A program made the position numbers and the translations under genes. Shown here piece after piece: positions 5,295 through 34,066 of a DNA stretch of 64,000 bases. Positions within the stretch are counted from its first letter, which is position 1; each line of letters begins with the position of its first letter. The notes beneath the pieces were generated by a model. The model was not told where the DNA came from. It searched no databases and saw only the letters and a list, made by a program, of their open reading frames with translations. Source of the stretch: a virus; IMG/VR virus record IMGVR_UViG_3300045988_039373, positions 1 to 64,000 of that record. One strand, 5' to 3'.

Positions 5295-5327
5295 AAGGCC
5301 TGAACAATTTTTATATTGCCAGGCCTT
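5295..5327 (-). terminator. Intrinsic terminator after the Lys/Glu-rich gene.
   Basis: The stem AAGGCCTG (5295-5302) pairs with CAGGCCTT (5320-5327) around a 17-nt loop. It lies between the stop at 5385 and the next start at 5272, and is followed in minus sense by a T-rich tract. Confidence 0.55.
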
Positions 5328-5384
5328 CTACCATTATTAACGAATACTCAAAAATATGATAAGTAAAAGTAAAAAGTGCTCTTA

Positions 5385-5945: not shown

Positions 5946-5991
5946 TTATATTAGGTGAATAATTGAATTTCCTATTTACATAATACCATAG

Positions 5992-6578: not shown

Positions 6579-6721
6579 GGGTATAAAAAATTAAAGCCCA
6601 CTACCTTCACAGGCAATGAGCTTTTGGCTGAACAACGTCCTAAGTGTAGATGTTATTCATATGAACTTAAACTCTAAATTTATATAGCAGACATATGGGA
6701 TAGTAGTTAGTAAGTTAGAGT

Positions 6722-7099: not shown

Positions 7100-7168
7100 A
7101 ATTTTTAATGTTTTATAAGTTAATGGTTATTATAAGTAAACTTCTACGTTTATTAATAGTTGATAGTA

Positions 7169-7192
7169 AAGGTAGGGAAATTTCCCTACCTT
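7169..7192 (-). terminator. Intrinsic terminator after the poly-acidic gene.
   Basis: Perfect 24-nt palindrome AAGGTAGGGAAATTTCCCTACCTT, 29 nt downstream of the stop at 7221. Confidence 0.65.
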
Positions 7193-7220
7193 CTTTTAAA
7201 TCTTGAATACGGTTACCAGA

Positions 7221-7742
<522 letters not shown>

Positions 7743-7779
7743 TTTCGTAATGTTTAAGTTGGTTAATAATTTATTTATA

Positions 7780-8028
7780 TCACTCTGTTATAAGTTTCTT
7801 TACCAGTATGGATTTCTGAGTATACCCAGATTTTAATAATTCCTCCTGAGCAATATTGAATTGTTTTATCTCATCTAGAGTTGTCTTTAATTCTAATTGA
7901 GATTCAATTGTTATTGCCTGAGAGGCAAGTTCCTTGTCACCTTGATAAGTGACTATCTTAAACTTCTTACCTGCAAATGGGTTTGCTGGTTGATGTGCTG
8001 TGATTTTAAAACCTTCGTTATTATTCAT
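7780..8028 (-). CDS. Hypothetical protein (82 aa).
   Basis: ORF track; ATG at 8026-8028. Confidence 0.6.
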   Translation of the reverse strand: MNNNEGFKITAHQPANPFAGKKFKIVTYQGDKELASQAITIESQLELKTTLDEIKQFNIAQEELLKSGYTQKSILVKKLITE

Positions 8029-8566
8029 TGCTATATTTAATTTTAGTTATCCCAGGAATACCCACCTTCCCAAATACTTCGGTATAGGATTTGTATTTCC
8101 CTTTTATCATTGTTTTATAGTTATCGGATAATCGAATTGGGTAGACCCATATTTTATTTTCTATCATCCTATTTGTCATTATATAAGCATAAGACCTTCT
8201 AAGTTTAATACTCTCTAATGGAACAAACCCTTGAAATAATAAAGACTTCTTAATAAACCTTTCTTTAGGCAAATACCCTAAAAATTTAAGTGATGCCTCA
8301 TCGAATATTTCGAGCATATCCCTTTGTGCTTTGATAAATAGTACCTTTTGTATTGGGATGTTCATCTTCTTTCTTAAATATAAAGCCAATGAACTTACCA
8401 ATGGAGGATACTGCAAGAATAACAGATTGAATTTATTTTTCTCCTCTTGACTCAGCCTGTTGTAAATCCTGTAGGATAGCAAGATTGATTTGTAATCTCT
8501 TTTGCCTTGTATACTTGGGAGATATGCCTTGCCGTTGTCCATAGAGTTTGATTGAGTACCTTTCAT
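8021..8566 (-). CDS. Hypothetical protein (181 aa as tracked); start uncertain.
   Basis: ATGs at 8566, 8542 and 8365. The first two overlap the upstream ORF by 134 or 110 nt. The 8365 start leaves a 67-nt gap. Confidence 0.5.
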   Translation of the reverse strand: MKGTQSNSMDNGKAYLPSIQGKRDYKSILLSYRIYNRLSQEEKNKFNLLFLQYPPLVSSLALYLRKKMNIPIQKVLFIKAQRDMLEIFDEASLKFLGYLPKERFIKKSLLFQGFVPLESIKLRRSYAYIMTNRMIENKIWVYPIRLSDNYKTMIKGKYKSYTEVFGKVGIPGITKIKYSNE

Positions 8567-8996
8567 TGAATTCCTTTTTTCCTTTAGACTTAAAGACTCG
8601 GTGCATTTGTACCATAAATCTTCTTCGTCGGTGTTTATCTATGTGATATTCATCGGGCATTATGAACTTCCTTGCTTTTACGAATTTACCCTTAAACCAG
8701 AATTTAGTACTACCCTTTTTAAGAAGTTTACCATTCATATCGGATAATTCTCTAATGCCTTGTTTTATAAGTTTCCTCCCAGATATTATATGGATATACT
8801 GAAGAACATCTACACCATAAAGATAAACTAAGGTAACCTTTACTTGATGTCTAGTAAAGTATGGTATACCGGTTAGATGTTTCCTATATAATTTCTTTTC
8901 AGTAACAATCTTATTGGTAGTATCTGGTCTCCAAGTCCATATATAATATCTATCTGGTCGTATGGGTCCATTGTTACTTTCCTTTAGCTTTACCAT
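8433..8996 (-). CDS. Basic hypothetical protein (187 aa).
   Basis: ORF track; ATG at 8994-8996. Confidence 0.6.
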   Translation of the reverse strand: MVKLKESNNGPIRPDRYYIWTWRPDTTNKIVTEKKLYRKHLTGIPYFTRHQVKVTLVYLYGVDVLQYIHIISGRKLIKQGIRELSDMNGKLLKKGSTKFWFKGKFVKARKFIMPDEYHIDKHRRRRFMVQMHRVFKSKGKKEFNERYSIKLYGQRQGISPKYTRQKRLQINLAILQDLQQAESRGEK

Positions 8997-9552
8997 TTAT
9001 ATTCCTCTTTGCCATTCTATACCAAAGATTGATAGATTTCTCATTTGCTTCGGGGAATTTCTTTTTCATTCTCCGAATAACTCTATCAAGTTCAAAACCT
9101 TTTGCAGTTAATTCGAATACATAAGATTTCTTTGTACCCTTGATAAGATTAAATTCATCCCTCTCTCTTGGTGGTTTCTTTTCTCGAGGTTTCTTTATTC
9201 CGGGAACTCGTTTTGTTCTCCTTTGCCCATTTTCCCCCTCTTCTCCGAGAAACCCAAGCCTTAGTCGAGAATTCCTTAATGGGTCATCTTTTGAATACCC
9301 AATAGTTTCCAATTGCTTATCCATCCAATCGTCATATTTATCAATTAACGATTTATCGGGCTTCTCTTCTGATACATTGATATAATGTAATAAGTCAAAT
9401 ACCCCAGCAGAACAAGCATCAGGGAAAGGCATCCCTAATATTATTGCCTTTCTCTTTAAATCCTTATAAGTCATGTTTCTCCCAGAAGCACCAAGGAAAT
9501 TTGATTTCTCCTTGGATGGAGCTTTCATGTCTTTTCTACTCTTTTTTGCCAT
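8974..9552 (-). CDS. Hypothetical basic protein (192 aa).
   Basis: ORF track; ATG at 9550-9552, 35 nt downstream of the promoter box. Confidence 0.7.
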   Translation of the reverse strand: MAKKSRKDMKAPSKEKSNFLGASGRNMTYKDLKRKAIILGMPFPDACSAGVFDLLHYINVSEEKPDKSLIDKYDDWMDKQLETIGYSKDDPLRNSRLRLGFLGEEGENGQRRTKRVPGIKKPREKKPPRERDEFNLIKGTKKSYVFELTAKGFELDRVIRRMKKKFPEANEKSINLWYRMAKRNINGKAKGK

Positions 9553-9587
9553 ATCATTAATATTTTAAAGTATTCATTTATTTTCTT

Positions 9588-9597
9588 TGCAAATATA
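9588..9597 (-). promoter_or_regulatory. Early-promoter box TATATTTGCA, copy 4 of 5.
   Basis: tgcaaatata on the plus strand. The 17-nt stretch tgcaaatataagaataa is identical to the copy at 3138. Confidence 0.6.
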
Positions 9598-9628
9598 AGA
9601 ATAAATAATTTAATCTTATCTTATTTCT

Positions 9629-10609
9629 CTATTTATTTTTATAAAAATCCGAGGTTTTTGCTCGGTTCGCAGCAGTGGATTTAGGTTTTTTAGGCTTTCT
9701 CTTGATATGTGTGTTATAAGCCATATCCAATTTCTTAATATTGAATTCTATGTTGTTCACTTGATTATAGTTTACTGCTCTTTCCACACAGCAACGGTAC
9801 TCTGGCCAGAATTTTTGTCCAAGCTTAACAGATTCGGTTTTAATCATGAACTTAGATACCATAAAACCAAAGGTATCAGCATCATCTTTAGTTTTAAATA
9901 CATACATGTAGAATCTACTAAATTCATCTACTACTTCATCCAAAGGTCTTACTGGTAACAATAGATAACCATCGGTATATAGGTCCTCAGATATTAAAGC
10001 TACCCAATACTTTTTTTTTCCTGGTTTTACTTTATACCTAAACCTTTCCTTGAGTTTATTGTGCATCCAATCCGGTACTCTATTAAGAAGATACTTGATA
10101 TATATCTTATCCTTCTTATTCGACCGCCTTTTAAATGCAGATGGCTGTTGTAGCATCCTTGGAAGTATTCTAAAGTTATTCCACCTATCAAATTCAAGAA
10201 TTAATCTTAGAGTGTCTATGTCCCATTCATCATCAGACTCCTTTAACCTCTTCATGTTTCTCTCTATATTTTTAGAGTTTACCTTTGGGAGTAATTGAGC
10301 TGAGTCTCCTGTGAATAAGCTTGCTTCTTTTCTTTTTAATCGTTTCTCTAAACATCCATCCATATAATCTTGGAAATTCCTCTCACAGGGGCAATCTGGT
10401 CGAAAAATAGAAGTGTGTTTCTCAAAAAAATCCGAGAATAGCCTAAAGAATTTCTCTGACCGTTCCCGGATTTCAAGATACTTGTAATGAGATAACTTTA
10501 AAATTTCACCAGCTTCCCATGAAGATTTACTTTCTGATAGTTGAAGGAATAATGATTGTTGTTCTTTATCAATTAAACAACTCCAGGCTTTTTGTTGAGC
10601 TTCGTTCAT
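9629..10609 (-). CDS. Hypothetical protein (326 aa) with a possible N-terminal sigma-region-4/LuxR-like HTH.
   Basis: QQSLFLQLSESKSSWEAGEILKLSHYKYLEIRERSEKF resembles an HTH by eye. It sits directly downstream of the NusG-like gene. Confidence 0.45.
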   Translation of the reverse strand: MNEAQQKAWSCLIDKEQQSLFLQLSESKSSWEAGEILKLSHYKYLEIRERSEKFFRLFSDFFEKHTSIFRPDCPCERNFQDYMDGCLEKRLKRKEASLFTGDSAQLLPKVNSKNIERNMKRLKESDDEWDIDTLRLILEFDRWNNFRILPRMLQQPSAFKRRSNKKDKIYIKYLLNRVPDWMHNKLKERFRYKVKPGKKKYWVALISEDLYTDGYLLLPVRPLDEVVDEFSRFYMYVFKTKDDADTFGFMVSKFMIKTESVKLGQKFWPEYRCCVERAVNYNQVNNIEFNIKKLDMAYNTHIKRKPKKPKSTAANRAKTSDFYKNK

Positions 10610-10613
10610 AATA

Positions 10614-11330
10614 TTAAATTCTCCTATATCTCATTATACTATCAATTGCTTCATTGGTTATCTGATTAGGGTCATATTCCCCAGAATTAGCATAAAGCTT
10701 ATCTGGGTCATGATTTAAATATACACTATAGATAACGTTGTCAAAAGGTAACCATACTTCCATTCTTCCCATTTCAGGGTATATAAGAACTTTTACTCTT
10801 TTACAAAGATGGTCAACCTCTAATACTGTAGCATCTACTCCCTCATAAGGATAACCCCGTAATACTAAGTAATCTCCAGGCTTTACATTGACTAAATCAT
10901 CTACTGAAAACTTCTTATTCTCTCTAGCAATACGTTTAAATCGCCTTACTTCTTTTCTACTACAAGTAGCCACTAAAGAGAAATCATCAAAGTCTTCTGC
11001 ATTGTCAATCCTTACCTTTTTCTTTCTTGGGTGCATTGTCTCGGTATTACGTAACCAAGTTCTGATACCAGATATATTCCTACGTAACTTATTAAGAAAG
11101 GGCCTTGAGAATGCTAATTTAGTGGGCATTCTCATAAAACCATAATTGAATAATACTGGTACTTCTTCGAATACCATCTTACCCTTTGTGGTTTTTCTTA
11201 ATACGTTTATCATAGGAATAATTGCCTTGATTTGGTCATACCCCTTTTCTTTGAGTTCTTTATTGATTTTATCACAGTACTTCCTTTCAAGGTAAAATAT
11301 ACAATATGAGTATGGGGTATGCTTCTTCAT
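10614..11330 (-). CDS. NusG/RfaH/UpxY-like transcription elongation (antitermination) factor.
   Basis: NGN-like N-terminus (YCIFYLERKYCDKINKELKE ... PVLFNYGFMRM). KOW-like C-terminus (VKPGDYLVLRGYPYEGVDATVLEVDHLCKRVKVLIYPEMGRMEVWLPFDNV) aligns with E. coli NusG [51 protein letters not shown], quoted from memory. Confidence 0.65.
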   Translation of the reverse strand: MKKHTPYSYCIFYLERKYCDKINKELKEKGYDQIKAIIPMINVLRKTTKGKMVFEEVPVLFNYGFMRMPTKLAFSRPFLNKLRRNISGIRTWLRNTETMHPRKKKVRIDNAEDFDDFSLVATCSRKEVRRFKRIARENKKFSVDDLVNVKPGDYLVLRGYPYEGVDATVLEVDHLCKRVKVLIYPEMGRMEVWLPFDNVIYSVYLNHDPDKLYANSGEYDPNQITNEAIDSIMRYRRI

Positions 11331-18238: not shown

Positions 18239-18625
18239 TTAATTATTCGGTTCTGAGTAAACTACTTCGTTCATACTCAATACGGTAAGAACGTTTTTCT
18301 CTAAGATCTTTTGAAGAGCAGGAGATAATTTATCTGTTTCGAATTCAAGTTCTTTACCCGCATACAAACCATAGGTAACTATCCTACCTATGCCCACCAA
18401 TTCCCGATAGGTTTTATATTCTTCTGTAATCTCCCCACTCTTTACTACAACTCCTTTACGAGGAACTCCCTCTTTTACTTGTTCAGGGATAATCAAACCC
18501 GATTTAGTTTGGTTTACCTCCTTTGGAGATAAAATAAGTACCCGGTTTTCTGTAGGGCATCCAGGTAATTCTTGATTAAATTTCTCAGCCACAAGAGGTG
18601 AGATAAATGTCATTGAATAATTCAT
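18239..18625 (-). CDS. GroES-like co-chaperonin (T4 gp31 analogue; tentative).
   Basis: RVLILSPKEVNQTKSGLIIPEQVKEGVPRKGVVVKSGE ... IGRIVTYGLYAGKELEF follows the GroES pattern. Confidence 0.5.
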   Translation of the reverse strand: MNYSMTFISPLVAEKFNQELPGCPTENRVLILSPKEVNQTKSGLIIPEQVKEGVPRKGVVVKSGEITEEYKTYRELVGIGRIVTYGLYAGKELEFETDKLSPALQKILEKNVLTVLSMNEVVYSEPNN

Positions 18626-19601: not shown

Positions 19602-19823
19602 TTATGTAGACATAGTATCTTCTCTTTTCGATTCTGTTATAATGGTTGATACAGATTCTGAATGCTTCAGATTAGTTTTACAATTAGGGCATTGTACTAT
19701 CCTAAAATAATCTCCAGATTTATTATAAACCCCAAAAGTTTCACTGGTATCATATTCAAATTCGCAATCACATACTGGGCATTTAGCCCTCCATACTGTG
19801 GGTCCGTTCAAAATCTTTTTCAT
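19602..19823 (-). CDS. Zinc-ribbon protein (73 aa).
   Basis: CPVCDC ... CPNCKT, two CxxC pairs. Confidence 0.6.
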   Translation of the reverse strand: MKKILNGPTVWRAKCPVCDCEFEYDTSETFGVYNKSGDYFRIVQCPNCKTNLKHSESVSTIITESKREDTMST

Positions 19824-20313
19824 AACGTTTTCTTTTCTTAATATATTTATATACTAACATGGGTGATAGCCCATACTTCCTAGCAAGTTTTGCTTTTATC
19901 ATACCAGTATCATACTCATAAAGTAATTGAAGTATATTGGGTCTACTTAACTTTGTATCTGAAAATTTAAACCTACCATCTCTAATACATTGTTGAGTAT
20001 TTTCCTTAGCAGTACCCCAATATAAGTTCTTATAATGATTATGAGTTCTTATATTATCCTTATGACATACATACTTATGATTATTTGGGTTTGGTACATA
20101 TACTAATGCTACTAATTGATGAATGTTATAAGTGTACCTATATCCATTCGTATCCCTAATAGAAACTATAACATATCCGTTATTTTTAATTCGATTAAGG
20201 GATAATTTTACCCAACCTTTACCCTTATAATTAGAATATACCTTACCATTCTTGGTAACATGGTAATTAGGGCAACCAATGCAATCTAAGTTTCCCTTTA
20301 AAATCTTCCTCAT
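19783..20313 (-). CDS. HNH homing endonuclease (NUMOD4 + HNH_3 type) with a C-terminal HTH; paralog of 31219-31800.
   Basis: YHVTKNGKVYS; IHQLVALVYVPNPNNHKYVCHKDNIRTHNHYKNLYWGTAKEN. It overlaps the last 47 nt of the DNA polymerase gene. Confidence 0.8.
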   Translation of the reverse strand: MRKILKGNLDCIGCPNYHVTKNGKVYSNYKGKGWVKLSLNRIKNNGYVIVSIRDTNGYRYTYNIHQLVALVYVPNPNNHKYVCHKDNIRTHNHYKNLYWGTAKENTQQCIRDGRFKFSDTKLSRPNILQLLYEYDTGMIKAKLARKYGLSPMLVYKYIKKRKRYEKDFERTHSMEG

Positions 20314-22618: not shown

Positions 22619-23362
22619 TTAGTATTTCTCTTGTAAGTCTTCCAGATTAGAAGCTAATGCTGTCCAATCTTTCTTATAAGAATGAAGAGAATCAATAGTA
22701 TGATATAGATAACCTGGTTTTACTCCTACCTCTTTAGCTACATATTCCATTAGTCTCCATGCAAGGTATACATCATTACCAAAGTGAGTAACAAAGTCCG
22801 AACTTCTTTGGTGATAGCAAATGTGTAATACCTTTTCTCCTTTACCATTCTGACGGATAAGGAAGTCATAATACATAGAGCAGGGTATACGTCTACTACC
22901 ATCATACCAATCGGTATCTAATCCGTCCATATCACCATTGAATATTGGTAATACTGCTTTACGAGTGTCATTATCGTCCTTCAGTAATCTTATCAATGGT
23001 TTAATAACATGGATGATTCTCTCATTATAGGTATAATCAAATTTACCATTTACCAAGAACTGTTCCCATAAATCTTTTCTTAATTCCCAAGCTTTACCTG
23101 GATTAATTATATCAGAGGTATCAATCCTTTCTTGGAACTCAGCATCTGCCCATTCCTTTGAATGTGAGAATACAAATAACCATACTGGGTCTCCCAATGA
23201 AGTTAAGCAATATTGTTGGCAAATGAGTTCTTTAGTAATAAAATCCTCATTACCTTCAATCACTTTATTCTGATAGGTCTTTGGTTTTACAGTTTGACCA
23301 TAACTGTTGAGTTCTCTGCCCATTTCGGACATTAACTCAAAACTGTTAGAATATATCCTCAT
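22619..23362 (-). CDS. Thymidylate-synthase-family pyrimidine C5 transferase resembling a dCMP hydroxymethylase.
   Basis: RIPCSMYYDF (nucleophile Cys), HQRSSDFVTHFGNDVY and DSLHSY. Asp occupies the ungapped position equivalent to ThyA Asn177. Length 247 aa. Confidence 0.7.
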   Translation of the reverse strand: MRIYSNSFELMSEMGRELNSYGQTVKPKTYQNKVIEGNEDFITKELICQQYCLTSLGDPVWLFVFSHSKEWADAEFQERIDTSDIINPGKAWELRKDLWEQFLVNGKFDYTYNERIIHVIKPLIRLLKDDNDTRKAVLPIFNGDMDGLDTDWYDGSRRIPCSMYYDFLIRQNGKGEKVLHICYHQRSSDFVTHFGNDVYLAWRLMEYVAKEVGVKPGYLYHTIDSLHSYKKDWTALASNLEDLQEKY

Positions 23363-23375
23363 ATAATATAAATAT

Positions 23376-23570
23376 TTAATTGTATGACATTGTAGAACTA
23401 ACCCAGGTCATATGCCAGTAGCGATATACAAAATCATCAAAATCCTCTACCTCTTTTAATAACAAGGGTATATCTGGTTCTCCCCCGTTCTTTTTAATCT
23501 CAAAAACTTGGTAATAGAATTTGTTTACTAATCCTATACGCTTCTGATTTAAAAATTCCTTAGCTTCCAT
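23376..23570 (-). CDS. Hypothetical protein (64 aa).
   Basis: ORF track; ATG at 23568-23570. Confidence 0.55.
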   Translation of the reverse strand: MEAKEFLNQKRIGLVNKFYYQVFEIKKNGGEPDIPLLLKEVEDFDDFVYRYWHMTWVSSTMSYN

Positions 23571-24480
23571 TGTTCTTTTGTTTTAAAAGTTTCTTTTTAT
23601 AGGCTTTACGTTGAGAGTAAGAGATTACATTCTCCGGGTATTCTATATCCTCGTATTCAAGAAGTAATTCTTTTGCTTTCATTGATTTATATGTTTCCTC
23701 ATATAAATCTGGTCGAAGCACTTTAAAACTTCTAAAGAATACCTTGAATGAAGAAAATTCCTTCTCGGTACCATTTTGGAATTTTTTCCATATCTCTTTT
23801 ATCCTCTTATTCCATGAATTCTCTTCTGCTCCCTTAAGTACCTTCTTCAAAGGTTTATGGGTATGATACATTAGAAGTGTCTCCACATTTCCGTACATTT
23901 GAGTCGCAAATAGGTTGATTTGTACTGACTGGTCCGGCCCATATACGTACTCTGACATTCGTTGAATTAATAGGAAATCGAATATTAACCTCTTGGTAAT
24001 CTCCGAAGCCCGAACTACCATTGTAATAACTGGGATGTCTTCCCCGAATCGTTTTGAAAAAGTCGCAGCTATTAGACATTGTTTACCGTTATCATGGTGA
24101 TTGTTAAACATATAAGTTATATTGTAATTCTGATTATACTTATTTCTCAGTACTCTCAGTTTACTACGCAACAAGTCAAGCTTATTAAAGTCTATGTAGT
24201 TATTCAATAAGCTAGTCCACTTAGTTTCTTTATAATTGAAACATCTCCCATAATCAAATTCTGGGTCTACCCAGGCATTGCGTATCTTTATGAATACGTT
24301 ATACACTACTGCTACCCCACTATTGGCAATAGCCCCCTTTGCAAATAAAGCAGGCTCTAATCTTAGGAATCCCTCATTGAGTTTTTCCCATGCCTCTTGT
24401 GAAGTAGCAAATTCTAACGAATGGAGGGACTCCTCCGGATTAAGTTGAAGTCCCTCTAATTTATGGTTCCATCCTGACAT
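23560..24480 (-). CDS. Hypothetical protein (306 aa); possible second, highly divergent ThyA-fold paralog.
   Basis: The track ORF is trimmed to the ATG at 24478-24480 (MSGWNHK), directly after the upstream stop. GKQCLIAATF ... VVRASEITKRLIFDFLLIQRM ... INLFATQMYGN loosely parallels the PCHxxxQF, QRSxD and HxY motifs. Confidence 0.45.
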   Translation of the reverse strand: MSGWNHKLEGLQLNPEESLHSLEFATSQEAWEKLNEGFLRLEPALFAKGAIANSGVAVVYNVFIKIRNAWVDPEFDYGRCFNYKETKWTSLLNNYIDFNKLDLLRSKLRVLRNKYNQNYNITYMFNNHHDNGKQCLIAATFSKRFGEDIPVITMVVRASEITKRLIFDFLLIQRMSEYVYGPDQSVQINLFATQMYGNVETLLMYHTHKPLKKVLKGAEENSWNKRIKEIWKKFQNGTEKEFSSFKVFFRSFKVLRPDLYEETYKSMKAKELLLEYEDIEYPENVISYSQRKAYKKKLLKQKNNGS

Positions 24481-24481
24481 G

Positions 24482-25327
24482 CTAGTAATTAGTATTTTGT
24501 CTCCATAAATTGAGACGTTGTTTTTTAAAGAATAAACTAAATAATCCACAAGGAGTAAACCCATTCATGGCTAAAAATCCCATATAGAGATAGAATGACT
24601 TTACCAAAGATTCCTGAAAATCTATTTCTTTGGTCATCACTTGAGTTTGTTTCCAGGGTCTACATTTAAGGAAGTTCCTTGCTTTATTAAGTTCATATAT
24701 TACTTCCCATAAATATAGCTTCTCATTTTCATGAGATATCTCGCTCATTTCATGAAAACCTGGGGTATAAGAAACTATCTTATCATATTCTGCTCTATCT
24801 TCTCTTGCCCAATCAGTTGGACTTAGTATAGGGTATTTCCTTACACTTCGATGGTCTGGGTACTTGATGAGTAAGTCTTTGACTCCAATTGCCATTACCT
24901 CAAATAAACTCTTTGCATCTTGGTATTTTAATATATCTTCTGGCAATATATTAGAATACAAAAGCAAAGTAAAGAAGAATCCCAAGGCATCTGCTTGTTC
25001 CTCATTTGCATTTGCTAGATGATTTAATACCTGAGTATATTCCTCTGAGGTTAAACAATCATTATTCCATCCATAATCACGATATATAGATACTACTTCA
25101 TCGGTAGATTCGAATCCTTCAGTTAACTCTTCAATAACTCTACCAATAAAATCCTTTAGAATAACTTGGCTCTTTGGATTATTTATATCTAATGGGTAAT
25201 CTGGTAGCTTTTCTATGGATTTATACCCAGAGAATTGCTCTATCCCAAGAACATACATTTCTTGTAATATCCGTGCCTCAGTTTCTTCTACCTGAGGCAC
25301 TTGTTCATTTATATTCCTGATGTCCAT
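24482..25327 (-). CDS. MazG-like all-alpha NTP pyrophosphohydrolase (tentative).
   Basis: VIEELTEGFES (EExxExxE) and ANEEQADALGFFFTLL. Confidence 0.5.
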   Translation of the reverse strand: MDIRNINEQVPQVEETEARILQEMYVLGIEQFSGYKSIEKLPDYPLDINNPKSQVILKDFIGRVIEELTEGFESTDEVVSIYRDYGWNNDCLTSEEYTQVLNHLANANEEQADALGFFFTLLLYSNILPEDILKYQDAKSLFEVMAIGVKDLLIKYPDHRSVRKYPILSPTDWAREDRAEYDKIVSYTPGFHEMSEISHENEKLYLWEVIYELNKARNFLKCRPWKQTQVMTKEIDFQESLVKSFYLYMGFLAMNGFTPCGLFSLFFKKQRLNLWRQNTNY

Positions 25328-25329
25328 GA

Positions 25330-25869
25330 TTATTTACTTCCTGATGAACCAAAACCATTCCCTCCTCTACTTCCCCACATCTGGGATTCAGTATAAAATT
25401 CCTCTTGTTGAATCTCTTCTGGTTCAGTAATATAGATAGGTACATGAATAAATTGTACCAGCTTCTGGCCAGCCTCAATAACCTGGGCTTCTTGAGAAGT
25501 GTTGTATACTCCAATGTGTATCTCTCCAACATAGGGAGAATCTACTATCTCGGCAGTAAAGATTAACCCTTTCTTAGTAGCTATACCAGATTTGTTTGCT
25601 GCCATTAACATAGATGCAGGAGGTTCTAGCAAACCTTTGATACCTGATGGGATAAGTATACGATGACCTGGTTTTAAAGCTATATGCCTTACGAATGATT
25701 CACTAAAGGGTATATCCAAATCATATCCTCCTGAATCAAATTCATTCTTAGAGTGGATATCCTCTGAAGTCAAGTTGGTTGGTACATAAAAATCTAACCC
25801 AGCATCATTTGGGTTTGCTCTGTTGGGAGATACTACCTCCCTTACTTTGATAAATCTAAATCTGTTCAT
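25330..25869 (-). CDS. dut: Trimeric dUTPase.
   Basis: All five motifs are present: DAGLDF, ANKSG, EIVDSPYVGEIHIGVYN, GQKLVQF and SRGGNGFGSSG. Confidence 0.9.
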   Translation of the reverse strand: MNRFRFIKVREVVSPNRANPNDAGLDFYVPTNLTSEDIHSKNEFDSGGYDLDIPFSESFVRHIALKPGHRILIPSGIKGLLEPPASMLMAANKSGIATKKGLIFTAEIVDSPYVGEIHIGVYNTSQEAQVIEAGQKLVQFIHVPIYITEPEEIQQEEFYTESQMWGSRGGNGFGSSGSK

Positions 25870-26072
25870 AATATATTACATTTACGTAAAAGTTGTCCAA
25901 AGGTTAATTTCTCGGGTCTAGAAACATGTACTCCCAATGAATTACACATTCTAATTACATCGGTAGAACCTTCCATACACAAATTAGCAAGTACATCACT
26001 TTGCTTTACAAAATAGTTTGGGTTGTTAAGGTATACCTTGAACATAGCCCATATCATCTCTATTGGTTTCAT
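25866..26072 (-). CDS. Hypothetical protein (68 aa).
   Basis: ORF track; 4-nt overlaps on both sides. Confidence 0.55.
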   Translation of the reverse strand: MKPIEMIWAMFKVYLNNPNYFVKQSDVLANLCMEGSTDVIRMCNSLGVHVSRPEKLTFGQLLRKCNIL

Positions 26073-26455
26073 TATTTAATACACTCTTTATAAAGTTCTC
26101 TAATACGTTTTCTAGGTACTTCAAATTTCTCAACGGTTTTGGTAATAACCTCTTTTCTGTCTTTCCCTTTCCGAATCAAGCCTCGGATGTATTTCTTGAT
26201 ACCAACCGTATCTTCTAATACATCCAAATCCTTGTATTGATTCTTCTGTTCTAGCTCTTTCCTTGTGATATTCAAGTTCTGAGACATCTTGAATGCACAT
26301 AATTCTGAGTCTCCGCATAGCTTACACTCTTTAGTTGATAGGTCATACCCAATACCGAAGCAAGGGTCTCCATTAGTTCCCAGAGTACTAACATCTATGG
26401 GAGTAAGGATATCTTGCTTCGATAAGTCAGGAAGTTGTTTCTTTTTCTTAGCCAT
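26072..26455 (-). CDS. Hypothetical protein (127 aa).
   Basis: ORF track; ATG at 26453-26455. Confidence 0.65.
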   Translation of the reverse strand: MAKKKKQLPDLSKQDILTPIDVSTLGTNGDPCFGIGYDLSTKECKLCGDSELCAFKMSQNLNITRKELEQKNQYKDLDVLEDTVGIKKYIRGLIRKGKDRKEVITKTVEKFEVPRKRIRELYKECIK

Positions 26456-26473
26456 TATAGGTCTTTTTTATGT

Positions 26474-26782
26474 TTATAAATAAATGTATATTTCACTGTT
26501 ATCTTCTATGGGAACATAGGAATAACCGATGTTATTAATAAATAGTTCCCTGAGTTTATATAATTCTTGGTATGAATTTCTATCATGGCTCTCTTGACAT
26601 ACTTTGACTACCATACCATTACTCCAGTACAAACAAAAGAAATGAGTAAAGCATTCGGGAGTATTTTGAGAAGTTTCCAAGCTTGATATCCATATCAAAT
26701 CTCTACAGTTGAATACATGTTTAGGATTATGTACCTCCCCAACAACAAGAGATTTAAACCATTCCCTAATCTTCTTCATCAT
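26474..26782 (-). CDS. Hypothetical protein (102 aa).
   Basis: The track ORF 26474-26896 is trimmed to the ATG pair at 26777-26782 (MMKKIREW), leaving a 17-nt overlap with the upstream gene. Confidence 0.5.
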   Translation of the reverse strand: MMKKIREWFKSLVVGEVHNPKHVFNCRDLIWISSLETSQNTPECFTHFFCLYWSNGMVVKVCQESHDRNSYQELYKLRELFINNIGYSYVPIEDNSEIYIYL

Positions 26783-26972
26783 AAGTGTAATTAATGTGTT
26801 TACAATTGGGACAGACCCATTCTTTGAAAGGCCATCCCTTAATTTCCAAATCCTTTTTATGAAAACGTTTCTTACATGAATGACATTGATAGCCATCCTT
26901 AGAAAGTATGAAGTCTAAAGCGAGTATTATTATCATAATAACAACCGCTGTAATTAAAATATATTTCTCCAT
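26766..26972 (-). CDS. Small membrane-anchored zinc-ribbon protein (68 aa).
   Basis: The ATG is at 26970-26972 (the track start was GTG). N-terminal TM segment ILITAVVIMIIILALDFIL, then CHSCKK ... CPNCKH. Confidence 0.55.
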   Translation of the reverse strand: MEKYILITAVVIMIIILALDFILSKDGYQCHSCKKRFHKKDLEIKGWPFKEWVCPNCKHINYTYDEED

Positions 26973-27214: not shown

Positions 27215-28702
27215 TTAACTCTTAATAAGGCTATGGTTAGGATGTTTCTTCCATAGCTTATCTAACAATATTACTTTCAATTCTTGTCTCTGATAATATT
27301 GCTTCCTATGCTTACCATGCCTATCTAAATAAGGGCCAGGATAATGAAGGTCATCCAGGTATACTTTCTTTTTCGATTTATCGGTTCTTACCAAACGACC
27401 AAGAAACTGAATAGATTTTTCCTGACTATCCATGCTTGCTGCATTAAGTAAATACCTAAGCTTAGGAAAGTTTTTACCTCGAGCAATGATTGTAGTTGAT
27501 ACCAAGATATCTATTTTGCCTTCCCTAAAATCCATCATTATTTGTTGTCTTAACTTAGAGGGAGTATTAACATGCACATAGGCAATATTATAGGCATCGC
27601 CCAGTTTCTTTTTAAAGAACTTATATAGATTTTCACAATGTGCAATATGCTTGCATACTACAAGAGCAGGATATCTACCTTGATTAATATTCCATCGTAA
27701 TCGATTATAAGCCATGGTCCACGCGGTATTATTTTCGGTAATAGAATCATCATATATCTCCTTATAGGATATACAATCAGATTCCCAATTACCATACCAA
27801 GGTTTACCGGGTACCATCTTTACGATAGTTTTAGTTGAGTAACCCTTCTTGATGGAATCCTTAAGTTTAAACTCAGCAATCACTTTACCAAAGAAACATT
27901 CTAGGTTCATATTCTTAACCCTATCCTTAGCAAGCTTACTCATATAAATCGTACCAGATAATCCTATACGAATTCTGGTATTAAATAACCGAGTGATTAC
28001 ATTCTGATATTGCTTACTACCTCCTTGGTCAGCCTCATCTATAAGTACCATATCTATTTGAGATAATTCCTTTTGATAGAATCTCATATTTCTCGAAATA
28101 GATTGAACCATACCTATAGTAAAGTTACTCCAGTTTAAAACCTTGCCTTGAACAAAAGTGATATCTTCTCCGGGAAGATATTGCTTAAATTCTTCTCTAG
28201 CTTGATTTAACCAATCCGAATCATTAGTTATTAGCAAAGTCTTTAACTGCTTCTTATAGGATAAATATAAAGACGACATGATAAGTGTTTTACCTGCATT
28301 AACAGTGTAATCTAATACGCCAATATGAAAAGGTGTATTCCCTATCTTATTATTGATAACTGCCTTAACAGCTTTCTCTTGCTCTGGTCTTAATTTATAT
28401 TTGCCTATATTCGTAACTACTTTACTGACTTTAGGTAAAGGTTGTCTCATATCTACAACTTTAGGTTTAATCCCCATCTCAATACACATATCGTATACTT
28501 TGGGAAGTAAACCTATTTTAAATTGCCCAGTCTTGGTGATGTAATGAATCTTACCGTCCCAATTCTGCATACCTCTTTGCCTTGTACGTAAGTAGAAAGC
28601 ATTTGGATGTCGAATAGCGAACTCATTATAAAGTTTTTGTGCGAACTTAAGAGGTAAGTCGAGTTCGCACATATTCCCATTCTGTATGATTATCCTACTC
28701 AT
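27215..28702 (-). CDS. Superfamily 2 DNA helicase (DEAD/UvsW-like).
   Basis: Walker A NAGKTLIM, DEAD box LIDEADQ, motif III LSGT, motif VI GRLVRT. Confidence 0.85.
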   Translation of the reverse strand: MSRIIIQNGNMCELDLPLKFAQKLYNEFAIRHPNAFYLRTRQRGMQNWDGKIHYITKTGQFKIGLLPKVYDMCIEMGIKPKVVDMRQPLPKVSKVVTNIGKYKLRPEQEKAVKAVINNKIGNTPFHIGVLDYTVNAGKTLIMSSLYLSYKKQLKTLLITNDSDWLNQAREEFKQYLPGEDITFVQGKVLNWSNFTIGMVQSISRNMRFYQKELSQIDMVLIDEADQGGSKQYQNVITRLFNTRIRIGLSGTIYMSKLAKDRVKNMNLECFFGKVIAEFKLKDSIKKGYSTKTIVKMVPGKPWYGNWESDCISYKEIYDDSITENNTAWTMAYNRLRWNINQGRYPALVVCKHIAHCENLYKFFKKKLGDAYNIAYVHVNTPSKLRQQIMMDFREGKIDILVSTTIIARGKNFPKLRYLLNAASMDSQEKSIQFLGRLVRTDKSKKKVYLDDLHYPGPYLDRHGKHRKQYYQRQELKVILLDKLWKKHPNHSLIKS

Positions 28703-29286
28703 TTGATAATTACCGTTACACCCTTAGTAGATTTATCCATACCCATTGCTTCCTTGAGAAGTTTAATATGATGCTCCTCATCCGCAATCAATTTCTCAAG
28801 GAAATAATTCACGTCATCGTAATCTGGGCGTTCTTCGTATTGAGCAATTGCTCTTTGAATTTTCTTGTAGTGACCAATAGTTTCTATCTCGGAATTCAAA
28901 GCAATCTTTAAAGCTTGTTCCCAAGTAGAACCAATCTCAATCGTAGGATTAATATTCATGGTAGAGTAATCCTCATAGGGATCTGCCTTTTGTAAAAAGT
29001 CCGATATCTTATCAAGGTGTCTCATCTCTACCAAACCAATACCCAACATCAATTCTGATATTTCTTCAAATCTAGAAGACTGTTGGGTATACATAATGAT
29101 GGCACTTAGTTCTGAGAACTTGGCATTCTTCCAAATCACATAGAACATATTAATTATCTCATCAGGCCATGGTTCGATATCCTTAAAATCTGGATAATCC
29201 ACGGATTGGTCTGAATACTTGAGGACATCTATAAAAGCATTAGCTGCATCCTCTACTCTGTTTCCGAAAAATTGTAAACCTTTCAT
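28699..29286 (-). CDS. Ferritin-like diiron-carboxylate protein (rubrerythrin/Mn-catalase-like fold; tentative).
   Basis: Two ExxH motifs (LVEMRHL, ADEEHHI) plus the partner glutamates FSELSAI and NSEIETIGHY. Confidence 0.5.
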   Translation of the reverse strand: MKGLQFFGNRVEDAANAFIDVLKYSDQSVDYPDFKDIEPWPDEIINMFYVIWKNAKFSELSAIIMYTQQSSRFEEISELMLGIGLVEMRHLDKISDFLQKADPYEDYSTMNINPTIEIGSTWEQALKIALNSEIETIGHYKKIQRAIAQYEERPDYDDVNYFLEKLIADEEHHIKLLKEAMGMDKSTKGVTVIIK

Positions 29287-29287: not shown

Positions 29288-30109
29288 TCATTTTCTTATT
29301 TTATCCCAAAGGGAACCTTCAACTTCTGGTTCACCTTCAAGTAGTTGTTTATTCTTATATTTATATAAATACTTATTGTATCTTTCAATTGCTTTATCCG
29401 TATACATTTGTGCAATATCCGGTAACCCATTGCACCATGCAAGAGATTCAAACTGAGCATCGATGAAGGTCTTATAATTCCAGCCCTCCTCTTTTAGGAA
29501 TTCACCTACCTTTGCAAAGTGTACATACTTCTCGGGTTGATTTTCATAAGACTCATATATACCAGTTGCCTTAGCAATCTTACCTATGAAATAATCATGT
29601 ATCTCTTTAGTAAGTTCTAAATCTGAATGTTGTAATTCTATCTCAGCATCTATCTGATTAGTAATGTTCTCCTGCATGGATAATAACCTTTGCATAACAT
29701 TACGATAATCAGTCATCCTCTTTAACCCAGTCTCAATGTATTTAATAAAACCTTCCCGGGTATCAAATTTGAAATCTTCACAGAAGTTATTACATACTTC
29801 TGCAAGCTTTTTACAATTTGCCCATTCCCGAGAATTACTTTCATTTATTTTACGAACCCCTCTATGCTTTAACTTTATACGAGTTGCATATAAAATATCA
29901 GCAACAAGGGCAGCATCCCCCTTAGATGCTAGTAAAATGTTATTAACTCGCTTAGTATTCTTATTGTTAGAAACTAAGACTGCTCTATGATTTATTGCCT
30001 CCTTTCGAGCAATAACAAAAAAAGCCTCAACTGGGAAATTATCTACCTCTAGGGTATTTAATATTTCCTCAAATTGAGACTTAGTTATATGGATAGATGG
30101 TTCACGCAT
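29288..30109 (-). CDS. Hypothetical protein (273 aa).
   Basis: ORF track; ATG at 30107-30109. Confidence 0.7.
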   Translation of the reverse strand: MREPSIHITKSQFEEILNTLEVDNFPVEAFFVIARKEAINHRAVLVSNNKNTKRVNNILLASKGDAALVADILYATRIKLKHRGVRKINESNSREWANCKKLAEVCNNFCEDFKFDTREGFIKYIETGLKRMTDYRNVMQRLLSMQENITNQIDAEIELQHSDLELTKEIHDYFIGKIAKATGIYESYENQPEKYVHFAKVGEFLKEEGWNYKTFIDAQFESLAWCNGLPDIAQMYTDKAIERYNKYLYKYKNKQLLEGEPEVEGSLWDKIRK

Positions 30110-31096: not shown

Positions 31097-31253
31097 ACTC
31101 TCTTATAGCTTTCCTAATTACTTTTCGAAGTTTCTTTAAATCCTCTAAATCTAAATCATTGATACAAGTTGTTTGCCAACCATTATGAGATATTTCTAAA
31201 GCTACCCCATCAGACCATCTATCTTTTACTACCTCTACTTTCTTTGTTTTCAT
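31074..31253 (-). CDS. Small ORF (59 aa) below the track threshold, between the HNH and primase genes.
   Basis: Hand translation: MKTKKVEVVKDRWSDGVALEISHNGWQTTCINDLDLEDLKKLRKVIRKAIREYENNQSV. It overlaps the HNH 3' end by 35 nt and the primase start by 23 nt. Confidence 0.4.
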   Translation of the reverse strand: MKTKKVEVVKDRWSDGVALEISHNGWQTTCINDLDLEDLKKLRKVIRKAIREYENNQSV

Positions 31254-31800
31254 AACTGTTATTTAATATATTACGAATTACCCTATCACCAACTCCAAAT
31301 CTCTTTCCTAGAACCCTTAATAAAGTTTTGTTTACTTTCCATTTAGTAAACCCTAATTGGATTAGTTCAGATAGTAATGTATTATAATAAGCTTTTACTT
31401 TAGGTATATCATTTAAGTTTAATTTACGATGTATATTATCCTTACCCATTACTGAAATCAGATTATTACCATCCCTGATAGATTGGTATACATTTTCTTT
31501 CTGGGTACCCCATTTTAGATTCTTATAATAATTATTATAAATATCGTTATCTAAGTGCATTACTACAGGTAAATTATTGGGGTTAGGTACATAAACAGTA
31601 GCTACTAATCTGTGAACAAAAATCTTTGTAGACTTACCATCCCTATAAAGGGATACACTATAGTATTTGGGACGTTTCTTTGGTATTAGTGGGGTAAACT
31701 CATTACTTAATTTACCCCTACTTCCTCGGACATATCTTGAATATACGCTCCCAGTTTTAGAAACGTAGTATCCCATAAATCCTGGTATATTATCTTTCAT
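31219..31800 (-). CDS. HNH homing endonuclease (NUMOD4 + HNH_3 type); paralog of 19783-20313.
   Basis: YYVSKTGSVYS; VHRLVATVYVPNPNNLPVVMHLDNDIYNNYYKNLKWGTQKEN. It is inserted between the helicase and primase genes. Confidence 0.8.
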   Translation of the reverse strand: MKDNIPGFMGYYVSKTGSVYSRYVRGSRGKLSNEFTPLIPKKRPKYYSVSLYRDGKSTKIFVHRLVATVYVPNPNNLPVVMHLDNDIYNNYYKNLKWGTQKENVYQSIRDGNNLISVMGKDNIHRKLNLNDIPKVKAYYNTLLSELIQLGFTKWKVNKTLLRVLGKRFGVGDRVIRNILNNSYENKESRGSKR

Positions 31801-33412: not shown

Positions 33413-34066
33413 ATGGGAAAAAGTAAAGGAAATAATGGCTCAGAGCTTCATAGATTAAAACCTATGCAGGAATATGATGAAGCTACATTCAACAGACTTT
33501 ATAAAGTTTGTAAGCCAGTAATCAGAAATCTTACCCGACAGATTGATTATAAAAGGTTTAATCTTACACCTGATATCATTCAGTCTTATTTCTGGGATAA
33601 GATGTTATTTGTTTTCAACAAATACTATGGTGAATGTACTGAAGAACATCTTAAAGCAAGAATCCTTGCATCACTTAGTACATTCAAGAATAAACTACTT
33701 CGTTCGGCATACGGAGAACAAGCAGAGTATAATCAAAATCTCTTTAAGCTTGATGATTTGTTTGATAATGACAAAGAATTAGAGGATGATAGTGAACAAG
33801 AGAAAGCTAAATCCGAAATGCTTGATATGATGTATAAGTATATGAAGGATAAACTTTCTCCCGATGCCCATCTCCTATTCGAGGTATTATTAACTCCCCC
33901 TCCTTTTATTAAAGAGAGGCTTGGAGATAGTACTCGAATTACCAACATAATGCTTATAGAGTTTTTCGAAATGCCTAAGACTAATGATTCTATGAGATAT
34001 ATCTCAGAACTTAGACAAGATATCCAATACTGGGAAGATAGAGCTAAGGAAGAACTTAAGTATTAA
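33413..34066 (+). CDS. Putative ECF-like sigma-70 family factor; the only plus-strand gene in the window.
   Basis: Region-2-like ATFNRLYKVCKPVIRNL ... PDIIQSYFWDKMLFVFNKY ... KARILASLSTFKNKLLRS. Region-4-like C-terminus LSPDAHLLFEVLL ... ISELRQDIQYWEDRAKEEL. By-eye match only. Confidence 0.5.
   Translation: MGKSKGNNGSELHRLKPMQEYDEATFNRLYKVCKPVIRNLTRQIDYKRFNLTPDIIQSYFWDKMLFVFNKYYGECTEEHLKARILASLSTFKNKLLRSAYGEQAEYNQNLFKLDDLFDNDKELEDDSEQEKAKSEMLDMMYKYMKDKLSPDAHLLFEVLLTPPPFIKERLGDSTRITNIMLIEFFEMPKTNDSMRYISELRQDIQYWEDRAKEELKY

Follow-up and report, generated by a model that had tools for sequence, protein, structure and literature searches.

Does a phage that carries two adjacent thymidylate synthase folds, together with a nucleotide pyrophosphatase and a dUTPase, build an altered cytosine into its DNA? 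The question is raised by a cluster of four open reading frames (ORF1 to ORF4) in the IMG/VR virus record IMGVR_UViG_3300045988_039373, of which we analyzed positions 1 to 64,000 (the window, 64,000 nucleotides). An earlier note, made from the sequence alone, had read the cluster as a candidate module for replacing cytosine by hydroxymethylcytosine (hmC), or by a further derivative, according to the logic of phage T4. Its gene-level reading held on every point, and its overall interpretation is tempered by the avoidance of GATC sites, by a C5 cytosine methyltransferase gene in a relative and by an arginine of ORF1 at the position of Leu143 of Escherichia coli ThyA. T4-like logic appears to be a fair model for the cluster, and we put the probability that it forms a T4-type pre-replicative pyrimidine pathway, one that would place altered cytosine in phage DNA, at about one half. 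The likeliest function is pre-replicative modification of deoxycytidine monophosphate (dCMP) at C5, probably hydroxymethylation.

A thymidylate synthase homolog with a cytosine-type discriminator

The four ORFs lie where the earlier note had placed them, all on the minus strand (Table 1), and all of the motifs that it quoted were found (RIPCSMYYDF, HQRSSDFVTHFGND and DSLHSY in ORF1; KQCLIAATF and VVRASEITKRLIFDF in ORF2). ORF1 matches the thymidylate synthase (TS) family in Pfam (PF00303 Thymidylat_synt, E 1.7e-11, 44.2 bits, cut-off 24.3) and in PHROG (phrog_160 'thymidylate synthase', E 3.7e-26). The NCBIfam TS equivalogs all score it at 16-47 bits against cut-offs of 108-427, the best at 46.7 against 174.55. 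Its closest PDB relatives are the HY126 dCMP hydroxylase AfhB (9iqu/9iqc, 8.8e-9) and then the CMP hydroxymethylase MilA (6e-4); canonical ThyA chains among the PDB sequences match it at 0.014 or worse in phmmer, and T4 dCMP hydroxymethylase (dCH, gp42) gives no phmmer match to ORF1 at E <= 1.

ORF1 was aligned by MAFFT with E. coli ThyA, T4 gp42, PEi20 gp42, SPO1 gp29 (a deoxyuridine monophosphate (dUMP) hydroxymethylase) and the TS homolog of Xp12. The column of ThyA Asn177, the discriminator, holds Asp197 in ORF1, Asp in T4, PEi20 and Xp12, and Asn in SPO1 and E. coli; ungapped phmmer alignments of ORF1 to 9iqu and to MilA 5b6d give the same column. This is the residue that the earlier note had picked out by counting eight positions on from the aspartate of the RSxD motif. 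Its worry that a shift by one residue would bring the neighboring Asn into this place proved unfounded, because an Asn-Asp pair with identical spacing occurs in T4 gp42 (RSNDVVFGFRND), where Asn stands directly before Asp179 (MRSNDVVFGFRND), and F-x-N-D is common to both proteins. The fit in size to the T4 enzyme that it had remarked on is also borne out (247 against 246 amino acids).

ORF1 keeps the counterparts of ThyA Tyr94 (Y112), Arg126 (R134), Cys146 (C161), Arg166-Ser167 (R186-S187), Asp169 (D189), His207 (H227) and Tyr209 (Y229), and departs from ThyA with R158 at Leu143, S162 at His147 and D197 at Asn177; neither Asn177 nor His147 is kept in four alignments. Positions 177 and 147 are the two at which TS homologs from cytosine-modified contigs stood out in the MetaGPA experiment, and Asp at the Asn177 position turns ThyA into a dCMP methylase (PMC8670742). 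Past the Tyr209 column there are 18 residues in ORF1, 28 in T4 gp42, 55 in E. coli ThyA and 61 in the Xp12 dCMP methylase; ORF1 is without the C-terminal arm of ThyA, and the tails of ORF1-type proteins span 8-19 residues. Hydride transfer in ThyA depends on this tail, which closes over the folate and seals the active site. Arg143, Asp169, Asp177 and a short tail recur in all nine of the clade members examined, as do Ser or Thr at 147 and only one Arg at 126/127. An AlphaFold model of ORF1 built from a shallow alignment (88-98% identity) reached a mean predicted local distance difference test score (pLDDT) of 46 and was discarded. From these sequence features we assign ORF1 to a distinct TS clade and not to ordinary ThyA, and we infer that it is a dCMP C5-modifying enzyme.

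An ordinary thymidylate synthase, with ORF2 as its decayed and non-functional duplicate, is what the PF00303 match and the name 'thymidylate synthase' carried by ORF1 homologs in the source databases would suggest. Given the exchanges of Asn177 for Asp, His147 for Ser and Leu143 for Arg, the missing C-terminal tail and the failure of every NCBIfam TS equivalog by the margins given above, it seems to us extremely improbable, and the conservation of ORF2 described below speaks equally against decay.

The Leu143 position bears on the product. It is Asp in T4, SPO1 and MilA, Glu in PEi20 and Asn in Xp12; the Arg of ORF1 agrees neither with ThyA, which has a hydrophobic residue there, nor with the known hydroxymethylases, which have Asp/Glu, and the product cannot be read off known rules. 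An acidic residue at this position has been proposed to admit or activate water in hydroxymethylases, and TS homologs can also act as flavin-dependent 5-hydroxy-dCMP synthases, of which the substitution D169N is diagnostic (PMC13326640). ORF1 reads RSSD and thus retains Asp169.

It is conceivable that ORF1 is such a flavin- and O2-dependent synthase, like RB69 gp48 and HY126 AfhB, its 5-hydroxycytosine serving as an attachment point for sugars. The discriminator of ORF1 is Asp, its best PDB match is AfhB, and many of its tblastn matches come from Straboviridae and Rhizobium phages that encode homologs of this class. We nevertheless consider this very unlikely, since D169N is lacking (Asp169 stands in ORF1 and in all clade members) and neither glycosyltransferase nor nucleoside diphosphate (NDP)-sugar genes were recognized among the ORFs scanned, at positions 48-34066. 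Bacteroides, Parabacteroides and Clostridium perfringens are, moreover, anaerobes. Oxygen counts against this chemistry as well, because the reaction needs it (PMC13326640) and the hosts proposed for Flandersviridae, the family whose description the phage fits (see below), are Bacteroides/Parabacteroides (PMC8008677).

A dCMP methyltransferase of the Xp12 type, by which 5-methylcytosine would replace cytosine in the phage DNA, agrees with the conversion of ThyA by Asp at Asn177 (PMC8670742), with a non-acidic residue at 143 (Asn in Xp12) and with the restriction pressure that GATC sites still seem to face (see below), with which a small methyl group is compatible. We hold it to be improbable all the same: Xp12 keeps a ThyA-like tail of 61 residues where ORF1-type proteins have 8-19, and the nearest sequence relatives of ORF1 are enzymes of the hydroxylase/hydroxymethylase type, not Xp12.

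A second, divergent thymidylate synthase fold

The longest reading of ORF2 starts at 24564. Because its homologs (301-308 amino acids) begin at an internal ATG, we prefer the span 23560-24480 (306 amino acids), as the earlier note had done. ORF2 has no Pfam or NCBIfam match and belongs to the PHROG family phrog_34294 'unknown function'; its family profile finds no TS among PDB sequences, only chance matches (e.g. centrin). An exhaustive search gathered 137 cluster representatives of the family, 64 of which were aligned, down to 18% identity. Y83, K87, W88, L91, Y95, C135, R157, R164 and D168 are invariant in these 64 sequences and E160 is kept in 63 of them.

An AlphaFold (AF2) model of ORF2 from the family alignment has a pLDDT of 91.6 and a predicted template modeling score (pTM) of 0.87. 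Its top 19 Foldseek matches in the PDB all belong to the TS superfamily (probability 0.99-1.00, E 6e-6 to 7e-3), beginning with MilA (6e-6), AfhB 9iqu (2.7e-5) and T4 dCH (2-3e-4), followed by many ThyA entries; the TM-scores are modest (0.35-0.57). Against BFVD the model finds family members, then a protein of Pseudomonas phage PMBT14, then TS and gp42 homologs. The PMBT14 protein (A0A2I6PI74) is the best fold match from outside the family (TM 0.67, target-normalised; E 2e-8; 14% identity), and the model comparison suggests that the ORF2-type fold may also occur in phages of Pseudomonadota.

Profile comparison points the same way. An alignment of TS homologs is matched by the ORF2 family in hhalign with a probability of 83% (E 8.9e-6), and ORF1 alone weakly (9.8%). 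The alignment pairs Cys135 of ORF2 with the Cys146 nucleophile, R157-A-S-E160 with R166-S-x-D169 and F167-D168 with F176-N177, and the spacing from Arg to discriminator is 11 residues in ORF2 and TS alike. The TS fold has its nucleophile Cys before strand iv, its Arg at the end of strand v and its discriminator on the first turn of helix J, and the model and alignments of ORF2 agree with that fold. ORF2 reads RASE, with Glu at position 169 in place of the D169N signature, and has Gly at position 143; the Arg126/127 pair is not recognizable. A TS-like core (about 20-198) is followed by a helical C-terminal extension (about 199-306). Longer homologs (322-483 amino acids) were searched for fusions, and none has a Pfam domain.

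The earlier note had seen in ORF2, by eye, a second copy of the TS fold with an Asp discriminator, and the confident model, its TS-only Foldseek matches and the hhalign result support that view. As modeled, ORF2 is a second TS fold with an intact nucleophile and an Asp discriminator, and its sequences appear to form an undescribed family inside the TS fold, outside PF00303. Most likely it binds a cytosine nucleotide and uses Cys135 catalytically. The invariant Cys/Arg/Asp set in sequences down to 18% identity, kept across phages of three host phyla, indicates strong purifying selection, which is hard to reconcile with a decayed duplicate.

The pyrophosphatase, the dUTPase and the kinase

ORF3 matches phrog_12184 'nucleotide pyrophosphohydrolase' (9e-18) and, slightly under the cut-off of 22.9, Pfam dUTPase_2 (PF08761; 7e-4, 20.4 bits). 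That cut-off is passed by the orthologs in C. perfringens phage P21 (1.6e-11, 45.2 bits) and Mycobacterium phage Muddy (2.8e-7, 31.4 bits), and by T4 gp56 (2e-5, 25.4 bits). A profile of ORF3 and four orthologs matches the dimeric dUTPase of Campylobacter jejuni (1w2y, 7.7e-4) and a MazG-like protein, and hhalign joins the ORF3 family to T4 gp56 (68%, E 4.7e-5) over the C-terminal motif Y-x-K-N-x-x-N-x-x-R-Q-x-x-x-Y. Residues E66, E67, E70, E110, D113, K269, N273, R276 and Y281 are invariant, the first five of them making up the metal-binding motifs EExxE (66-70) and ExxD (110-113). ORF3 is thus predicted to be an all-alpha nucleoside triphosphate (NTP) pyrophosphatase of the dimeric-dUTPase/T4 gp56 family, probably acting as a dCTPase that supplies dCMP; it is not needed as a dUTPase, because the separate trimeric dUTPase ORF4 is already present.

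ORF4 matches Pfam PF00692 (3.1e-15, 56.5 bits, cut-off 22), phrog_135 (5.9e-24) and, below the equivalog cut-off, NCBIfam 'dut' (5e-20); a dCTP deaminase model scores it at 17.8 bits. The motifs DAGLDF, VDSPYVGE and RGGNGFGSSG can be seen by eye, and ORF4 is predicted to be a trimeric dUTPase that makes dUMP and removes deoxyuridine triphosphate (dUTP). The MazG-like pyrophosphatase and the dUTPase announced by the earlier note are therefore both recovered by profile searches. DNA in which uracil replaces thymine was ruled out, as the phage encodes a dUTPase.

The P-loop kinase-like gene that the earlier note had pointed to, some distance from the cluster, matches phrog_2107 'thymidylate kinase' (7.1e-9) and finds only generic P-loop proteins in the PDB. 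Its motifs GPSGxGKTTLAK, FVTDRSxxDN and EDxGxRIxNxxYQ are common to its orthologs, which match Pfam dNK (weakly) or AAA_28. In P21, Muddy and the Gordonia phage Cozz the NTPase gene is immediately preceded by one for a small P-loop kinase. By these similarities the gene is a candidate deoxynucleoside monophosphate (dNMP) kinase for a modified nucleotide.

Conservation of the cassette

The same genes recur together in other phages. Close relatives carry dUTPase, NTPase, ORF2, ORF1 and PolA in this order. The ORF2 and ORF1 genes overlap there, and in other cassettes too the stop codon of the former often overlaps the start codon of the latter. On gut-phage contigs encoding ORF2 homologs at 28-43% identity the order is helicase, NTPase, ORF2-type gene, ORF1-type gene, dCMP deaminase and PolA, with the kinase beside SbcD. 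Searches by tblastn found the pair of ORF3-like and ORF2-like genes in cultured C. perfringens phages (P21, CPAS-15, CPD4, CP3, Clo-PEP-1 and others). P21 has kinase, NTPase, ORF2-like gene, 'thyA' and PolA; its TS and ORF1 share 48% identity, and most key residues of the ORF2 family, among them Y83, K87, W88, Y95, C135, R157, E160 and D168, are retained in its ORF2-like protein. In Cozz the order is kinase, MazG, gp46, TS, deaminase and PolA, and gp46 matches the ORF2 family at 94% (E 1.3e-7). Muddy has gp49 (kinase), gp48, gp47, gp46 (TS), gp45 (dCMP deaminase) and gp44 (PolA), and its gp47 matches the ORF2 family at 89.8% (E 1.8e-6). Homologs of Muddy gp47 occur in 85 GenBank phage records, all labeled as hypothetical proteins and, among the matches listed, usually adjoined by a 'thymidylate synthase'. 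Wherever the contig extends far enough, in nine of nine distinct contexts, an ORF1-type gene accompanies the ORF2-type gene.

A cassette of kinase, gp56-like NTPase, ORF2-type gene, ORF1-type gene, often a dCMP deaminase, and PolA is therefore conserved, and it is spread over phages of Bacteroidota, Bacillota and Actinomycetota, including about a hundred cultured phages; it is found in Flandersviridae-like gut phages, C. perfringens phages, Muddy and about 85 actinophage genomes. Literature searches found no paper on the ORF2 family or on DNA modification in these phages.

The dUTPase is held in the same place in close relatives; more distant cassette phages carry a dCMP deaminase instead. The two enzymes, which both make dUMP, seem to be mutually exclusive beside the cassette (the deaminase is found in loci L006, L008, L009 and L010, Cozz and Muddy). 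Their interchange hints that dUMP, or the deamination of modified dCMP, matters to the pathway.

These neighbors raise the possibility that the genes convert nucleotide pools and leave no modified base in virion DNA. On such a thymidylate route, which would bypass dUMP, deoxycytidine triphosphate (dCTP) would go to dCMP (ORF3), then to 5-methyl- or 5-hydroxymethyl-dCMP (TS fold), then to thymidine monophosphate (dTMP; dCMP deaminase) and on to the thymidylate-kinase-like protein. The dCMP deaminase directly after the ORF1-type gene in most cassette phages, the apparent exclusion between deaminase and dUTPase, and a kinase most similar to thymidylate or deoxynucleoside kinases would all fit, as would unmodified cytosine in the DNA, to which GATC avoidance and the C5 methyltransferase of a relative could point. 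The window, however, has no dCMP deaminase, and the presence of two cytosine-type TS folds is explained no better. A pure role in balancing cytosine against thymine pools is also argued against by the range of the genomes that bear the cassette, from about 33% to 60% G+C, as the G+C-rich actinophages among them would gain nothing from converting C to T. T4 also combines dCMP deaminase with full replacement by hmC. MetaGPA, in addition, found TS, MazG-like pyrophosphohydrolase and dCMP deaminase to co-occur specifically on modified contigs, and so links TS(N177D), pyrophosphohydrolase and deaminase with cytosine-modified DNA (PMC8670742). On balance we think the thymidylate route unlikely.

Proposed pathway

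Starting from folds, conserved residues and gene order, which are described above, we infer substrates, products and a modified base in virion DNA as follows. ORF3 would hydrolyze dCTP to dCMP, and ORF1 would use methylene-tetrahydrofolate as the source of a one-carbon unit that it adds to dCMP at C5. It would most likely release 5-hydroxymethyl-dCMP, because the C-terminal arm that serves hydride transfer in ThyA is missing. The P-loop kinase, together with the NDP kinase of the host, could raise this product to the triphosphate, which the adjacent phage PolA would incorporate, and the dUTPase (ORF4) may keep uracil out and supply dUMP for thymidylate.

ORF2 could be a partner subunit in a heterodimer or perform a second C5 chemistry on dCMP or on the product of ORF1; a heterodimer, or a pathway of two steps or two products, is suggested by its strict pairing and translational coupling with ORF1. 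Four products of TS homologs are known, namely methyl, hydroxymethyl and hydroxy derivatives and thymidylate, the fourth chemistry (5-hydroxy-dCMP) having been published in 2025-26. It is a more speculative idea, and one that we regard as doubtful, that ORF2 and the Arg143/Asp177 enzyme of the ORF1 type, possibly as a heterodimer, turn a cytosine mononucleotide into a C5 derivative that lies outside these four. The route to it might be an exocyclic-methylene intermediate trapped by a nucleophile other than water or hydride.

Restriction sites and other evidence that tempers cytosine replacement

Several observations temper the idea of altered cytosine in the phage DNA, and three of them (the avoidance of GATC, the C5 methyltransferase of a relative and the lack of a recognizable transferase) speak against a replacement that is both complete and bulky. 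The first concerns restriction sites, for which expected counts were taken from a second-order Markov model over the whole window. GATC occurs 22 times against 248 expected, an 11-fold avoidance (z = -14), at positions that include 14797, 15070, 17738, 18305, 21290, 28980 and 40295 and extend to 62239; ATGCAT is absent against 12 expected. Such avoidance implies that cytosine-containing sites are still under restriction pressure. GATC is avoided in close relatives too (1 against 77 expected in L014, 0 against 21 in L006, 5 against 19 in L005) but only weakly in the more distant carriers MT121964, L008, L009 and L010, a pattern that suggests avoidance of restriction within one lineage. Some enzymes that cut at GATC are insensitive to C5 methylation. 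The avoidance is compatible with partial modification, with no modification, or with a small group that some enzymes overlook.

The relative MT121964 carries, besides the same cassette, a C5 cytosine methyltransferase (L011:4682-5677; PF00145, 6e-18). Under full replacement such an enzyme would be pointless, because the C5 of cytosines would already be substituted; no homolog of it was found in the window.

Other points lie in the proteins themselves. Arg at the Leu143 position of ORF1 stands outside the Asp/Glu of proven hydroxymethylases (PMC13326640). ORF1-type proteins retain only one of Arg126/127, and ORF2 has no obvious equivalent of either. The interchange of dUTPase and dCMP deaminase beside the cassette keeps the thymidylate route alive. 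In the literature we found no DNA-level or enzymatic evidence for any phage that bears the cassette.

Finally, no glycosyltransferase or other transferase was recognized among the scanned ORFs of the window, beyond which lie about 21 kb of the genome; the earlier note had likewise recognized no glycosyltransferase. Pfam and PHROG scans found no transferase in the unknown ORFs at 48-11330, 26072-26896, 29288-30109 and 33413-34066, and about 20 minus-strand ORFs of 90-330 amino acids (48-9552, 9629-10609, 10614-11330 and 29288-30109) have no significant family match in either collection. A post-replicative DNA-modifying enzyme, if any, would have to be among these or in the 21 kb outside the window. 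Some Flandersviridae have an ispD-family cytidylyltransferase and a licD-family phosphotransferase inserted in the replication module (PMC8008677). If hydroxymethylcytosine is made, these two enzymes could, in principle, modify it further with a donor activated by CDP; neither the window nor any of four close relatives has the pair.

Two observations on composition stand apart. CTAG and CATG are mildly low in the window. CpG is depleted in the window, with an observed/expected ratio of 0.50. Most Flanders-like loci lie at 0.42-0.51 and the short contig L006 at 0.71; the depletion is extreme in the loci of C. perfringens phages (L012/L013), at 0.10, and the ratio comes to about 1 in those of actinophages and T4.

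Genomic setting

All genes of the region are on the minus strand in the ORF list of the window. The gaps between ORF4 and ORF3 and between ORF3 and ORF2 are 1-2 nucleotides. The small ORF between ORF2 and ORF1 has no family match in Pfam or PHROG and is missing in the close relatives (L014-L017), in which there is no spacer and the stop of ORF2 overlaps the start of ORF1; it is therefore probably a recent insertion or a spurious ORF, outside the system. At the place of the polymerase gene, PF00476 DNA_pol_A is annotated in all relatives. The surrounding module is T4-like, with DnaB, primase, a gp32-like single-stranded DNA-binding protein (SSB), a UvsX-like recombinase, a 5'-3' exonuclease and SbcCD-like nuclease subunits.

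Table 1. Features of the window discussed in the text, in the order of transcription for the cluster, followed by other genes.
Feature	Position	Strand	Basis and remarks
Helicase	27215-28702	-	First of the region in transcription order; followed by four small ORFs, then ORF4
ORF4, predicted trimeric dUTPase, 179 amino acids	25330-25869	-	Pfam PF00692, phrog_135
ORF3, predicted all-alpha NTP pyrophosphatase of the dimeric-dUTPase/T4 gp56 family, 281 amino acids	24482-25327	-	phrog_12184, Pfam dUTPase_2
ORF2, very divergent predicted TS-fold protein, 306 amino acids	23560-24480	-	AlphaFold model, Foldseek, hhalign
ORF of 64 amino acids	23376-23570	-	In the 197-nucleotide spacer separating ORF2 from ORF1
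ORF1, TS homolog, 247 amino acids	22619-23362	-	Pfam PF00303, phrog_160
DNA polymerase I (PolA), 765 amino acids	20267-22564	-	Family-A polymerase motifs in the translation; directly downstream of ORF1
P-loop nucleotide-kinase-like protein, 195 amino acids	14564-15151	-	phrog_2107
HNH-type homing-endonuclease-like gene	19783-20313	-	Replication module, inserted between PolA and upstream genes
HNH-type homing-endonuclease-like gene	31219-31800	-	Inserted between DnaB and primase
Ferritin-like/rubrerythrin-like di-iron protein	28699-29286	-	Adjoins the helicase on its upstream side; Pfam Rubrerythrin 6.6e-7, Ferritin 7.7e-7
GroES/Cpn10-like co-chaperonin	18239-18625	-	Between the SSB gene and PolA; phrog_3188 1e-6; Pfam Cpn10 on the ortholog in relatives
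ORF of 2054 amino acids	55950-62114	-	Within the structural block

An HNH gene is also inserted between the ORF2-type and ORF1-type genes of the relative L005. The di-iron gene upstream of the helicase is kept in three of four close relatives (L014, L015 and L017), and L016 has a shorter gene of 71 amino acids there.

Human metagenome assemblies very commonly contain contigs of 80-88 kb that encode homologs of ORF1 and ORF2 (75-98% identity), and the clusters of these homologs reach several thousand members; the sole phage relative in GenBank is the unannotated faecal contig MT121964. Flandersviridae, a family proposed by Benler et al. in 2021, are human-gut myophages with a median genome of 85.2 kb, a gene order that runs from a structural block to DnaB, DnaG and PolA and on to unknown ORFs, and hosts that CRISPR spacers place in Bacteroides/Parabacteroides (PMC8008677). 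The phage of the window fits this description, its gene order being colinear and the contigs of its homologs 80-88 kb long.

Significance

Most known hypermodifications of phage DNA begin with TS homologs that modify pyrimidines before replication, and the cassette sits in a phage family whose prevalence in the human gut rivals that of crAss-like phages. Muddy has been used in compassionate-use phage therapy. If the DNA is modified, sequencing-based virome surveys, escape from restriction and CRISPR, and host-range prediction would be affected, as would the innate immune sensing of therapeutic phage DNA and the engineering of cassette phages. If it is unmodified, the cassette would define a new, dUMP-independent route to thymidylate. 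Should the doubtful proposal of a new C5 derivative be true, an undescribed DNA base would be present in Flandersviridae, in C. perfringens phages and in actinophages, Muddy among them. Cultured carriers exist, which makes the question of modification directly testable.

Comparison with known systems

In T4 the hmC pathway comprises the dCTPase/dUTPase gp56, the dCMP hydroxymethylase gp42, the dCMP deaminase cd, the thymidylate synthase td and the dNMP kinase gp1. The cluster resembles it in having an NTP pyrophosphatase of the Pfam family of gp56, a nucleotide kinase and two TS-fold proteins per genome, in the dCMP deaminase of most cassette relatives, and in the flanking replication and recombination genes (gp32, UvsX and gp46/47-like SbcCD). 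ORF1 shares with gp42 the Cys, Asp169, the discriminator Asp and the F-x-N-D motif as well as its size, although it is only about 21% identical and has Arg, not Asp, at the Leu143 position. Whereas td is a canonical enzyme of the dUMP type, ORF2 is very divergent and has Asp, not Asn, as its discriminator. Unlike T4, whose genes are scattered and which has alpha- and beta-glucosyltransferases, the window holds its genes in one tight cassette, and no homolog of either glucosyltransferase was found among its scanned ORFs.

The 5-hydroxy-dCMP synthases (RB69 gp48, DLP3 gp80 and HY126 AfhB; PMC13326640) include the closest solved structures to ORF1 by sequence, and AfhB is among the best fold matches of the ORF2 model (TM 0.57, target-normalised). 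Common features are the discriminator Asp and a short C-terminus. The synthases differ at position 169, where PEi20 and 9iqu read RSQN and ORF1 and ORF2 have Asp and Glu, and in the sugar-nucleotide and glycosyltransferase genes, which were not recognized among the scanned ORFs of the window. The hosts of the cassette are mixed, those proposed for Flandersviridae and C. perfringens being anaerobes, yet aerobic actinomycetes occur among them too.

The Xp12 module (TS homolog, dCMP deaminase and DHFR) has, like the cassette, a TS with an Asp discriminator adjoining a dCMP deaminase; it differs in its long ThyA tail, in Asn at 143 and in having no second TS-fold gene alongside. MilA, the CMP 5-hydroxymethylase of mildiomycin biosynthesis (5b6d, 5jnh), is the top Foldseek match of ORF2 and the second PDB match of ORF1 and has the cytosine-type Asp discriminator, but it belongs to bacterial secondary metabolism, acts on a ribonucleotide, has Asp at 143 and reaches a TM-score of only about 0.4 to ORF2. 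The modified contigs of MetaGPA show the same combination of TS, MazG-like (PRA-PH) protein and dCMP deaminase and the same changes at 177 and 147 (PMC8670742). They differ in coming from sewage and coastal samples and in being described by Pfam domains only, and the cassette is without a carbamoyltransferase; the ORF2 family could not have surfaced there, because no Pfam model covers it.

The cluster is thus not a new kind of system, its logic being known from T4, Xp12 and RB69. What is new is the Arg143/Asp177 clade of TS homologs, an undescribed TS-fold family strictly coupled to that clade, and a compact cassette that unites them across phages of three host phyla.

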